Part shown: positions 42,838 to 63,102 of the stretch, one piece after another | Layout of the letters: every line of letters begins with the position of its first letter | How positions within the stretch are numbered: position 1 is the first letter of the stretch | Source of the DNA: Octopus vulgaris | Lineage: Eukaryota | Length of the DNA stretch: 64,000 bases | Assembly (NCBI GenBank): GCA_951406725.2 | Contig: OX597818.1 | Span: 77,810,001 to 77,874,000, forward strand | Direction: 5' to 3' | Notes under the pieces: generated by a model | What the model was told of the DNA's origin: nothing | Database searches by the model: none | What the model saw: only the letters and a program-made list of their open reading frames with translations | Program-made: the position numbers and the translations under genes

Positions 42838-45800
42838 CATCATCATCATCATCATCATCGTTTAACGTCCGTTTTCCATGCTAGCACGGGTTGGATGGTT
42901 CGACCGGGGTCTGGGAAGCCAGGGGCTGCACCAGGCTCCAGTCTGATCTGGCAGTGTTTCTACAGCTGGATGCCCTTCCTAACGCCAACCACCCCGCGAG
43001 TGTAGTGGGTGCTTTTTACGTGCCACCTGCACAGGTGCCAGTGGGGTCTGGCATCGGCCACGATCGGTTGGTGCTTTTAACGTGCCACTGGCATTGAAGC
43101 CAGCCAAGGCGGAGCTGGCATCAGCCATGTTCGGATGGTGCTTTTTATGTGCCACCGGCACAGAAGCCAGTCGAGGCGGAGCTGGCATCGGCCACATTCG
43201 GATGGTGCTTTTTATGTGCCACCGGCACAGAAGCCAGTCGAGGCGGTGCTGGCAACGGCCACGTTTGGATGGTGCTTTTTATGTGCCACCGGCACAGGTA
43301 TCACAACTACTATTTCCATTGATATTTGTTTCGATGTTCATGTACATGCACTTGACTCAACAGGTCTCCTCAAGCACAGCGAGATGTTCTGGGATCCAAG
43401 GTACTTTGAATGGGCAGGAGCTATGCGGAACTGGTGCCGGAAGCATCCTGGGTCTTTGCAGTCACAGCACATCTCCAGAGATTTCGGTCCTTCGCCATTG
43501 CCTCAGTGAGGCCCAACGCTCTGAGGTCATTCTTGACTACCTCATCCCATGTCTTCCTGGGTCTACCTCTCCCCCTGATTCCTTCAACTGTTTGGGAGTG
43601 GCACTTCTTCACACATCTCTCCTCATCCATCCACAGTACATGACCATACCATCGCAAGTGTTGCTCTTGCACACCGCATCTGATGCTTCTTATGTCTAGC
43701 ATTTCTCTCAGGGTGCTTACACTCTGTCGTGCATTCACACTGACATTACACATCCAGCGAATCATGCTAGCTTCATTTCTTTCAAGTCTACGCATGTCCT
43801 CTGCAGTCACGGCTCATGTTTCACTACCATGAAGCATGGCAGTTCGCACACATGCATCATACAATCTACCTTTCACTCTGAGAGACCCTTTGTCGCCAGT
43901 AGGGGTAGGAGCTTTCTAAACTTTGCCCAGGCTATTCGTATTCTAGTGGTGACACTCTCTGAGCATCCACCTCCACTACTAACTTGGTCACCCAGGTAGC
44001 GGAAACTATCAACTACTTCTAGTTTCTCCCCCTGGAGTGTGATGGAATCTGTTTTTTGAATATTTGTGATGTCTATTGTCCCTGTGCATCTGCCGCACAT
44101 GAAAGCTATCTTATCAGTTAATTTCTCTTTGATGTTGCTGCACCTCTTATGCGTCCATAGCTTACACTGGGTGCATCTTATGGAGTTTCTACCTACACCT
44201 TTCCTACAGATCGAGCAGGGCGACCTGCCCGATGGGGTGTGTGCTGAGTTCGCCTTTCTGCTTACTATAGCTTTGGTCTTTGCTACATTTATTCTAAGGC
44301 CCTTTGATTCTAACCCTTGTTTCCACACCCGAAATTTTTTTTCTAGTTCCGGTAGTGATTCTGCTATGAGAGCCAGGTCATCAGCATAGAGGAGCTCCCA
44401 GGGGCAACCTGTTTTGAACTCCTCTGTTATTGCCTGGAGGACTATGATGAATAAAAGGGGACTGAGGGCTGAGCCTTGGTGTACACCTACTTCTACCCGG
44501 AATTCTTCACTATATTCGTTGCCAATCCTAACCTTGCTGACAGCCTCTCTGTATAGGGCCTGTACAGCCCTTATTGGCCATTCGTCAATCTCCAGTTTCT
44601 GCATCGACCACCAGATAAAGGATCGGGGGACCCTGTCAAAGGCTTTCTCCAAGTCCACAAAAGCAATGTAGAGGGGTTTATCTTTAGCTAGGTACTTCTC
44701 CTGCAGTTGTCGGACCAGGAATATAGCATCAGTGGTGCTTCTACCCGGCACAAAACCGAACTGCATCTCATCTAAGCAAATTCTCTCCCTAATGAGATGG
44801 GTTATGACCCTCTCTGTGACCTTCATCACCTGATCCAACAGTTTAATACCCCTGTAGTTATTTCTATCTAGAGCATCACCCTTACCCTTGTAGCAGTTGA
44901 CTATGGTGCTGCTACGCCAGTCATTGGGTATGACTCCATTATGAACTACCTGGTTTACAATACGGGTGACTAGGCCATAGCCCACATAACCAGCTGTTTT
45001 AAGCATCTCAGCAGTGATACCCGATGGGCCGGGGGCTTTACCTGGTTTCATACCCTTAATTGCCTTAACTACAAGGGAGCTGTCTATTTGGATAGCTGGT
45101 CCCTCTACTGGGTCAACATTTGGCAGGCTCTCCTCCTCCCATTCATTCTCCACATTCAGCAGTCTTTCATAATGGCTTCTCCAAGTCTCTTTCTTTTCAC
45201 CAACATTAAAAAGCAAGTGCCCCATCATCCATGCGGACACATTTCTCTCCTGTAACATCACTATTTTCTCTCACACACTGTCTAGCAATCCGAAATACCT
45301 CAGTTCTTTGGTCCTCACGTCGCTGGACATTGGCAAACTTCTTCTTTTCTGCTACATCTTTGGCTATGTATACCTGCCGCCCGGCCTCCTTTTGGCTACT
45401 TGGTATGGTTCCCTGCTACCCCCATCCCTCCAGGCTCTCCAGGCCTGTTTCTTTGCACTAATGGCTTTGTTTACTGCACTATTCCACCACCACATAACTC
45501 TAGGTCTGGAAGGGACTTTGCACCATCCACAGACTTGGTCTGTGGCACTCAGCAAGCTGTCCCGTAGGAATTTCCAGCTACCTTCTATGTCCGACGTCTG
45601 TAGCTCCTCCCTCTCATCAAATTTCTTGATGAGGATGTCCCTAAATCTCTGATCATGTGAAGGGTTCTTTAGCTTCCAAATCCTTCTTTTCTGGATTGGT
45701 CTGTTTCTTGGAGTTCTGGCCTCAAGCCTAAAGTCACTAATGATTAGCCTATGCTGAGGGATACACTCTTCACCCGGGAGGGTCTTTGTATTTAAGAGCG

Positions 45801-45908
45801 ACCCTGCATCCCGCTGTCTGGTGAGGATGAAGTCTATTTGGCTAGCGGAGTCTCCTGACTGATAAGTTATAAGGTGGCAGTCAGGCTTCCTGAAGTTCGT
45901 GTTGCAGA
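42838..45908 (-). mobile_element. RTE-clade LINE, 5'-truncated (APE end, RT, C-terminal domain, repeat-containing 3' UTR, (ATG)n tail)
   Basis: RT motifs KAPGPSGITAEMLK, NYRGIKLL, QFGF.PGRSTTDAIF, FVDLEKAFDRV, GVHQGSALSPLLF and ELLYADD; C-terminal LRWYGHV...RGRGRPRKTW; APE end ITYQSG..QIDFIL. Confidence 0.97.
43421..45908 (-). pseudogene. Disrupted RTE ORF (endonuclease-reverse transcriptase)
   Basis: Longest intact piece is 43873-45261. There is a frameshift near 43875 (ATKGLS/LRVKGRLY), an in-frame TGA near 43815 (ETW to ET*) and further frameshifts near 45200-45390. Confidence 0.9.
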
Positions 45909-45986
45909 TTAAAAGGTTACATGCATTATATATTTACATACATACACATATATGCATATATATATACATACATACATATATATATG

Positions 45987-59335: not shown

Positions 59336-59370
<35 letters not shown>

Positions 59371-59374
<4 letters not shown>

Positions 59375-59674
59375 ATAGGAAAGAATGGAGCTGAACGAAG
59401 ATTTAACAAAATTCCTTTATTTTATTTTCGACATACGTTTCGAAGTCCCTAATTCCGAATGAATAAGGAGTCCATTATGCAGCTTTCTCTTCAGGAAAAC
59501 TTGTTGTGCATTTTGTTGGAGAATTAAGTTCCTGGATTTTCCTGAAGAGAAAGCTGCATAATGGACTCCTTATTCATTCGGAATTAGGGACTTTACAGAC
59601 TTCGAAACATATGTCGAAAATAAAATAAAGGAATTTTGTTAAATCTTCGTTCAGCTCCATTCTTTCCTATACTT
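59371..59674. repeat. Near-perfect inverted repeat with opposing hammerhead ribozymes
   Basis: Arms 59371-59499 and 59537-59674 with a 37-nt spacer; they differ by one substitution and a 9-nt indel. Confidence 0.95.
59536..59621 (+). ncRNA. Type I hammerhead ribozyme; mirror copy on the minus strand at about 59414-59499
   Basis: Stem I attttc/gaaaat; CTGAAGA at 59542-59548; stem II gaa..ctg../..cag.cttc; GAAA at 59604-59607; palindromic stem III ACATATGT; GUC cleavage after 59615. Confidence 0.8.
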
Positions 59675-59823
59675 AATATATTAAACTTCAAATTTCCGCA
59701 CTAAGGCACGGATTTTATGCCCTATGGTCGTAACTTCAACCGTGCTTTTTCTGTTGTGAGTTTGCTACCCAGGTATCGGTTATCTTTCGAATTATCCGTA
59801 ATAAGATAATTCATTTGTCTACT

Positions 59824-61699: not shown

Positions 61700-62045
61700 G
61701 CAGTTTACTTTATGCACTTTGTTACGTCCTTGTAAGATGGTTATATTTTAGCAGTATTTAACAAAGTAGCGGCATTTTGTAAAGAGCTCTGGAGTTGTTT
61801 CTAAGTGATTTGCAGGATTGTTAATCATTTCCATAAAGCGCTTCTTTTCTCCTATCTAAGTGATTTGCAGGATTGCAATCACTCTGAGTGGTTTGAATCG
61901 CTCTAGTATCTTCCGCTTGAGATCGAAATTCGGGTCTGGTTTTTCAAATTCTATGTAGCTGTAGTCTTCTATTTCTGTGTGTTTGACGAAGATATGTGGC
62001 TCATGTAAATTTAAACGCTGTTTAAATTTAGTATCAGTTATGTTC
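61700..62045 (-). mobile_element. Penelope-like GIY-YIG C-terminal relic
   Basis: Minus translation TDTKFKQRLNLH...FDLKRKILERFKP...EK and LETTPELFTKCRYFVKY (compare LNKRSELxxKCRHxNKY); internal 20-bp duplication at 61801 and 61856. Confidence 0.65.
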
Positions 62046-62199
62046 TGCTGAATCGATCATATATAAGCGATCATATATAAAGCAGGAGCCACCAACACCA
62101 AACTGATCCTTAATATAGTGCATAAGCACTTTATAGTAGGAAGTAAAGTAAATTTAAACAAAAGAAAAACCTCAGTTTTTATCAACATGAAAACTTAAT

Positions 62200-62964
62200 T
62201 AATGCAGGACCGGTTTCTAACTCTTCAAATACGTTTGACAACGTAAGTTTGATTAGTCTTCATCAGCTGCATTTACCTAGACAAAATTTCAAATGTTGCC
62301 ACATCAATGCCAGTACACTCGTCTGAACGCCAAAACATTAACAGAACAAGAACAGTGAAGAAGTTTCAATGAAAATAATAATGCAATACAAATGTATTAC
62401 TTTCCAGTAAATGATAGCCCCATAAGGGTAAAATTATACATATAAAAGTAGATAAATGGTACAATAAGGCACCAATATTTACTGGAAAATAGCAATCGAT
62501 ATAAATACGACGCTATTGTATAGCTTCACTACGTATATACAAGCAAAAACGTGTGTGCAACAAACATGAAAAGAATTTGTCTTAGCTCTAGGAAGAACAT
62601 TCGATAAATGGATATCTTTGCTTGTATATACGTAGTGAAGCTATACAATAGCGTCGTATTTATATCGATTGCTATTTTCCAGTAAATATTGGTGCCTTGT
62701 TGTACCATTTATCTACTTTTATATGTATAATTTTACCCTTATGGGGCTATCCTTTACTAGAAAGTAATACATTTGTATTGCATTATTATTTTCATTGAAA
62801 CTTCTTCACTGTTCTTGTTCTGTTAATGTTTTGACGTTCAGACGAGTGTACTGGCATTGATGTGGCAACATTTGAAATTTTGTCTAGGTAAATGCAGCTG
62901 ATGAAGACTAATCAAATTTACGTTGTCAAACGTATTTGAAGAATTAGAAACCGGTCCTGCATTA
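62200..62964. repeat. Long inverted repeat, 348-bp arms at about 98% identity, each ending in a hammerhead
   Basis: Arms 62200-62547 and 62617-62964; about 6 mismatches counted by eye; 69-nt spacer. Confidence 0.97.
62891..62963 (+). ncRNA. Type I hammerhead ribozyme; mirror copy on the minus strand at 62201-62273
   Basis: Stem I aatgcag/ctgcatt; CTGATGA at 62898-62904; an extra AGAC, then stem II taat-caaatttacgtt/aacgtatttg-atta; GAAA at 62947-62950; palindromic stem III ACCGGT; GUC cleavage after 62956. Confidence 0.82.
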
Positions 62965-63102
62965 TCCGATTCTAGGTTGTCCATTTATCGAATGTTCTTC
63001 CTAGAGGTAAAACAAATTTTTTTCATGTTTGTTGCATGACTGTAGCAAAATGACTAAAACAAGTGAAAGATAAAAGGTGTTATTTATAAAATCAAATTAG
63101 TT

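Follow-up and report, generated by a model that had tools for sequence, protein, structure and literature searches.

Retrozymes of corals and the axolotl form long arrays. Non-LTR retrozymes have been described in metazoans, for example as a 350-390-bp repeat in Mytilus (Cervera and de la Pena 2020, PMC7229834), and were proposed to be non-autonomous derivatives of PLEs, based on their co-occurrence with PLEs and on pLTR homology in vertebrates (Li, Clavereau, Pollet 2026, bioRxiv 10.64898/2026.07.22.740005). In PLE hammerheads, A9 is followed by an additional purine and then by a G-C pair (Cervera and de la Pena 2014, PMC4209133); for motifs with a 2-bp helix III and a palindromic loop, efficient cutting requires that two of them act as a dimer in the same RNA (PMC4209133, PMC7229834). 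Inverted 5'-truncated copies, tails and a (TA)n bias are features of PLEs (Craig et al. 2021, PMC8557442). A PLE protein in purified form cut both target strands in vitro and extended each of them, and its RT started at two internal RNA sites, the spacing of which equals the genomic "tail" (Frangieh et al. 2024, PMC11167929). All comparisons with these five texts refer to the parts of them that were available.

The window analyzed here, a stretch of 64,000 nt from Octopus vulgaris, contains a palindrome at positions 62200-63036. It is probably a copy, inverted head to head and damaged at its ends, of a 428-nt hammerhead repeat that has no ORF and is dispersed in the genome. This repeat is likely a non-LTR retrozyme, which a Neptune-type PLE would mobilise in trans. 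A first-pass annotation made from the letters of the window had proposed a retrozyme-like, ORF-less family copied from circular or concatemeric RNA and probably moved by PLE proteins, which is supported by matched repeats and PLE-type ends. It had also ranked the locus as the best candidate for an undescribed system, a claim that falls with the non-LTR retrozymes described in PMC7229834 and bioRxiv 10.64898/2026.07.22.740005; the family likely belongs to this known kind, as a new member of it.

Like the metazoan retrozymes of PMC7229834, the family is a short ORF-less repeat of low GC with a type I hammerhead, a short palindromic helix III, tandems, a self-paired monomer and coexisting PLEs. 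In contrast, its unit of 428 nt is slightly above their ~170-400 nt, and it is dispersed as partial tandems that do not exceed ~2 units, where those retrozymes form long arrays. Its fixed (TA)n-joined ends and frequent inversions are absent from the description of metazoan retrozymes in the available part of PMC7229834, where such repeats were shown to make circles; for the present family the circle is a prediction. A proposed dependence on PLEs and dispersed solo and dimer copies are shared with the PLE-derived retrozymes of vertebrates (bioRxiv 10.64898/2026.07.22.740005), but pLTR homology was undetected here and it is the signature of the insertion ends that points to PLE enzymes. With EN+ PLEs (PMC8557442, PMC11167929) the family has in common 5' truncation, partial tandems, an inverted 5'-truncated copy, two internal RT starts and AT-rich or (TA)n targets, while it differs from them in having no ORF, a whole unit of 428 nt and a tail of ~65 instead of 30-40 nt. 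Its hammerhead resembles those of PLEs (PMC4209133) in being type I, in its palindromic loop 3, in the additional purine between A9 and a G-C pair and in the dimer action expected of it. It departs from them in that its helix II is extended further and its helix I has 7 bp, which brings it nearer to the canonical type I than to the minimal motifs.

A search of part of the literature returned no paper on such a hammerhead or retrozyme family in octopus. Arguments on which enzyme mobilises animal retrozymes have so far relied on co-occurrence and on pLTR homology. Here, the insertion ends bear the PLE signature directly, and an intact candidate protein of the Neptune type in the same genome makes the pairing of enzyme and substrate testable in vitro.

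The palindrome and its hammerhead motifs

The two inverted-repeat arms at 62200-62547 and 62617-62964 are 348 nt long each and differ by 6 mismatches (98% identity), and the spacer at 62556-62612 matches the reverse complement of 62980-63036 at 54 of 57 positions, both as annotated in the first pass. The permuted order proposed with them was read on both strands: the plus strand runs from body to ribozyme to tail, and the minus strand from tail (62612-62556) over an 8-nt junction to body and ribozyme. In terms of the family unit, the minus arm (62200-62612, minus strand) comprises positions ~364-420, the junction and then 1-348, and the plus arm (62615-63036, plus strand) comprises positions ~1-420. 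Two filler bases at the inversion centre (62613-62614) separate the 5' ends of both arms. The junction between tail and body (62548-62555, minus strand) has 8 nt here and 10 nt in most family copies; it is ordinary internal sequence of the tandem without a seam.

The minus arm stops 8 nt beyond the cleavage site in AT-rich DNA, without a normal family end, and the plus arm lacks the normal 3' end, that is, a second pass to position ~113 plus (TA)n. At 63033-63080 (plus strand), the 3' end of another short repeat, which aligns to window positions 255-300 and 12470-12510, overlaps the last four bases of the element with a GCA/GCATG microhomology. Since the remainder of that repeat is missing, a deletion after insertion is suggested to have removed the normal right end of this copy. 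The arms are 2.1% apart and the nearest other family copy is 3.2% away; being closer to each other than to any other copy, they indicate that the palindrome was one insertion event. The earlier view that it is no assembly chimera stood for the right junction (63036/63037), which is bridged by contigs of three other runs, X16, X17 and X18 (organism labels A, C and D, respectively). It did not extend to the left junction, covered by a single contig (X17) whose 30 letters within the element are one fewer than the bridging rule asks, nor to the inversion centre, for which no bridging piece was present among the contig pieces listed.

The cores of the two hammerheads were located on both strands, one type I motif per arm with a 7-bp stem I, the palindrome ACCGGT and a GUC site, in agreement with the first reading. 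In the plus arm, the motif occupies 62891-62963 (plus strand), with the CTGATGA core at 62898-62904, GAAAC-CG-GTC at 62947-62956, the 7-bp stem I at 62891-62897/62957-62963 and a predicted cut after 62956. Its long helix II has a damaged base (AGACU/AAUUA), helix III has 2 bp with the palindrome ACCGGU, and the clean core junction was not formed in the lowest-energy fold. The minus-arm motif occupies 62201-62273 (minus strand), with the core at 62266-62260, a helix II base of AGACU/AGUUA and the cleavage C at 62208, after which the cut is predicted. The Rfam scan of the window yielded no match at the gathering score. Hammerhead_HH9 (Rfam) matched seven of seven family ribozymes in the three loci scanned, all below the cut-off, with E-values of 8e-4 to 1e-3 in L011 and L019 and of 0.013 and 0.35 for the two motifs of the window.

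The AGAC following the core had been taken for an unusual insert. Pairing in helix II was counted over the 103 loci with both sides mapped, where AGAC(A/T) faces, before GAAAC, the variants AGTCA (28 loci, with AGACT), AGTCT (21 loci, with AGACA) and AGTTA (18 loci). Judged by this pairing, AGAC is no insert but the 5' strand at the base of helix II, and AATTA, found in the plus arm and in two of the 103 loci, is a damaged version; the minus arm has AGTTA. In 61 of ~100 loci, helix II is closed by an A.A pair, so that many family copies may cut poorly. Variation was lower at core positions (14 of 845 letters) than elsewhere (595 of 19082), a weak difference, and subfamily changes in the predicted monomer fold occurred without clear two-sided compensation. 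As each strand of the palindrome has a single dimer-dependent motif, neither should be able to release a monomer. Read-through RNA of the locus is predicted to fold 91% paired, including over the hammerhead motif. With one ribozyme per strand, buried in a 348-bp hairpin of this RNA, the copy is predicted to be dead and unable to cut out an RNA circle.

The 428-nt family and its insertion ends

The 420-nt plus arm as query gave 112 matches among the 40 scored of 2243 candidates. At least 278 exact matches were found for a 22-nt core pattern and none for its reversed control; the three exact patterns, this one included, yielded at least 72, 278 and 234 matches and 0 in the controls. The repeat family is dispersed at hundreds of places in the 2.8-Gb genome, and the tandem, ORF-less genomic copies anticipated for the monomer were among them. 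Altogether, 152 loci were read: 30 best DNA matches, 30 obtained via the ribozyme pattern, 77 via a pattern close to the 3' end, with 2 duplicates added later, and 13 hand-picked or partly so. Dropping 14 loci that repeated a place left 138 distinct loci with 191 arms; 13 further long copies were read later, which makes 151 distinct loci in all, of several hundred or more.

Natural distances from cleavage site to cleavage site at two places elsewhere were 428 and 429 nt, matching the non-coding monomer of about 428 nt that had been deduced from the palindrome. The unit has 35% GC and, in a natural tandem, no frame above 99 codons. Two ribozymes on one strand are present in the tandem copies L011, L019, L029, L203 and L211, and the palindrome locus is without such a tandem. 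Copies are simple partial tandems, and their lack of an internal region speaks against an LTR architecture, the longest reaching 835 and 867 nt, i.e., ~2 units at most. Long arrays above ~2 units did not occur among the 40 scored candidates, and one pair spaced by 428 nt appeared among the first 100 of the 278 core matches listed. Circular folds of natural monomers were better than those of shuffles, with z-scores of -4.8 and -7.9 (60 shuffles each). Parts of the unit are covered by contigs from two runs that may be RNA; being assembled, these contigs are silent on ends, strand, level and circles. L138/L139 and three arms of L137 are family copies in local segmental duplications.

Near unit position 113, 125 of the 191 arms come to an end, followed by 40 near position 178 and 26 elsewhere. 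The arms are 5'-truncated partial tandems with two fixed internal end sites ~65 nt apart. (TA)n follows 111 of the 125 arms ending near 113 and 34 of the 40 ending near 178, and is often found on the 5' side also. Head-to-head arrangements occur at 35 distinct loci, and at 17 of the 70 loci in the least selected sample. One 113 end is paired with one 178 end in 24 of the 35, like ends are never paired, and the other 11, the palindrome among them, have an atypical end. Arms with a 178 end stopped near the 113 site above expectation (10 against 3.3, p 0.002, post hoc), possibly by stalling where two cDNAs meet. This pattern of two ends, (TA)n and head-to-head loci is the two-start and tail signature of PLEs, and the inversion would be a by-product of PLE-type priming on two strands. 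Given inversion at 17 of 70 loci and a single ribozyme per strand, the ambisense double-hammerhead system of the first-pass annotation had to be abandoned.

Candidate enzyme, template and rival readings

A GIY-YIG search of the genome led to a PLE family with many intact 781-aa frames that comprise an RT, a CX4CXXC linker and a GIY-YIG at the C-terminus, and which fits Neptune or Nematis as described in the available part of PMC8557442. Similarity among the copies of this Neptune-type family is 98-99%. They terminate in (TA)n at one of two sites ~36 nt apart and also occur as head-to-head pairs in which both kinds of end are represented (L186). Aligned with the Neptune pLTR, the unit scored 44-46 against shuffle means of 41-43; neither this alignment nor a common 3' end of the two is significant among the PLE families sampled, which are part of those in this genome. 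A short hairpin motif near the first end is present in both (post hoc). With no significant sequence in common with the unit, the Neptune-type family is a candidate partner by signature only, and older PLE subfamilies (57-83% alike) may be a better match for the age of the retrozyme family.

The loci L183-L189 and L194 (e.g., L183 3293-6680) hold this very young Neptune-type PLE with intact 781-aa RT and GIY-YIG frames and an upstream overlapping frame. A hammerhead-like motif in degenerate form (TTGATAA...GAAACATGTTA) lies near its 3' end. In L173, an older PLE subfamily carries, downstream of the GIY-YIG match, a minimal motif that is likewise hammerhead-like and has a helix III, GAAACCGGTC, identical to that of the retrozyme family. 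An arm at L183 2683-2935, head-to-head with a family copy, starts with the 9 bases after the cut site and continues with other repeated sequence to (TA)n; it may be a chimeric insertion that includes another small element. L183 as a chimeric insertion of PLE and retrozyme was rejected, as the two elements are ~600 bp apart with other repeats between them.

Under the proposed mechanism, a genomic copy with two tandem ribozymes would be transcribed, and its dimeric hammerhead would cut the RNA into a 428-nt monomer, which a host ligase may close into a circle as in other retrozymes. A PLE endonuclease would nick (TA)n and its RT would start inside the RNA at unit position ~113 or ~178, the ends and targets being those read in the copies and the enzyme a putative one. 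The RT would then pass the ribozyme site and continue round the RNA for as many as ~2 turns, leaving the partial tandems with matching repeats that are seen in the genome. Both target strands would prime, one per site, with the two cDNAs joined head to head in the observed pattern, and the palindrome copy would later have lost both outer ends. Beyond this, we tentatively suggest that the family could be a minimal natural PLE substrate on a ribozyme-made RNA circle, where priming occurs on both nicked strands, in every case at two different sites inside one circle, and the RT rolls past the ligated cut. If true, and with an intact Neptune-type protein present in this genome, this would be the first matched pair of retrozyme and enzyme and a direct test of the origin of PLE pseudo-LTRs and inversions.

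On average, repeats of one locus differ by 5.5% and those of different loci by 9.9%, and divergence was lower within the locus in 41 of 41 tandem and 17 of 18 inverted comparisons. The 5.5%, together with a right junction of the palindrome in runs under three organism labels, argues against the young age first ascribed to the family. Subfamily variants match in the internal and terminal repeat, with 13 T/T and 12 C/C at position 97, 18 and 7 at position 54, and no discordant case. Copies never longer than their parent could not sustain such matched repeats, which argues that one unit was re-read, either on a circle or by an end-to-end jump on cut monomers. Identical genomic products would be left by a non-autonomous PLE derivative without any circular stage, the RT of which copies linear read-through or ribozyme-cut RNA and makes the tandem by jumping from the RNA 5' end to a 3' end, with the hammerhead marginal to mobility. 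We regard this route as rather unlikely. It is consistent with ribozyme mutants having had no effect on PLE insertion in vitro (PMC11167929), with cleavage in only one of nine Xenopus retrozyme dimers (bioRxiv 10.64898/2026.07.22.740005) and with the lack of any family copy much above 2 units among those read. The 5' ends are also somewhat enriched at the cut site, which requires linear cut templates: among 131 arms free of selection, eight ends are found at 340-347, just past the cut, against 2.9 expected (p 0.009), and seven (p 0.028) without the doubtful arm L056. As other position windows score as high in a scan, this gives a hint and no more that some templates were cut linear RNA. Against the circle-free route, the cut site is crossed seamlessly in 119 of the 191 arms (109 once and 10 twice), the monomer is strongly self-paired as a circle in its predicted fold, related animal repeats make circles (PMC7229834) and, more weakly, the core positions vary less than the rest.

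An ordinary pLTR of an unsampled autonomous PLE would likewise produce a PLE-like insertion signature, and the searches scored 40 candidates each, with 151 distinct loci read of several hundred or more. However, in the loci read every long arm runs into another unit on both sides, and flanks common to loci are unrelated common repeats only, never an ORF, which marks the unit as the whole element and makes the pLTR very improbable. The unit sequence was absent from 46 GIY-YIG loci except for one neighbouring independent insertion (L183), and no RT and GIY-YIG frame was contiguous with the unit in the loci read. That the palindrome functions in its own right, as an ambisense double-ribozyme or dsRNA-producing element, is scarcely credible: its 91% paired fold and the presence of its right junction in runs under three organism labels would suit such a role, but no other locus has its breakpoints, the centres of other inverted copies differ, both ribozymes have helix II damage and the arms have drifted by 2%. 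A role of the fold-back as an ADAR or Dicer substrate, suggested in the first pass, would require the locus to be transcribed.

Neighbouring frames and other features of the window

Broken frames at 61751-62153 (minus strand) are adjacent to the palindrome and lie outside the family. From their motifs, we take them to resemble the C-terminus of a PLE GIY-YIG protein. This relic is single-copy in the genome as DNA and as protein, and returned no Pfam match, no homologue among 8 candidates, no Atlas match at 0.9 and no match to the 46 GIY-YIG loci. It had been named as the partner of the element and was rejected in that role, being single-copy and of unconfirmed GIY-YIG identity; the intact Neptune-type family elsewhere in the genome is the better candidate. 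No clear host exon was present in the next 20 kb.

Within the window, a minus-strand fragment of a Neptune-type PLE endonuclease region was identified at 6886-7195 (tblastn E 8e-19). A nested near-perfect palindrome at 59364-59681, with outer arms of 89 nt (96%) and further inner arms, adjoins (TA)n and looks like another fold-back insertion. The minus strand at 43421-45933 contains a broken LINE with RT and endonuclease frames, presumably RTE-like from its motifs. At 25328-25723, a cysteine-rich exon-like frame is probably the last exon of a host gene.
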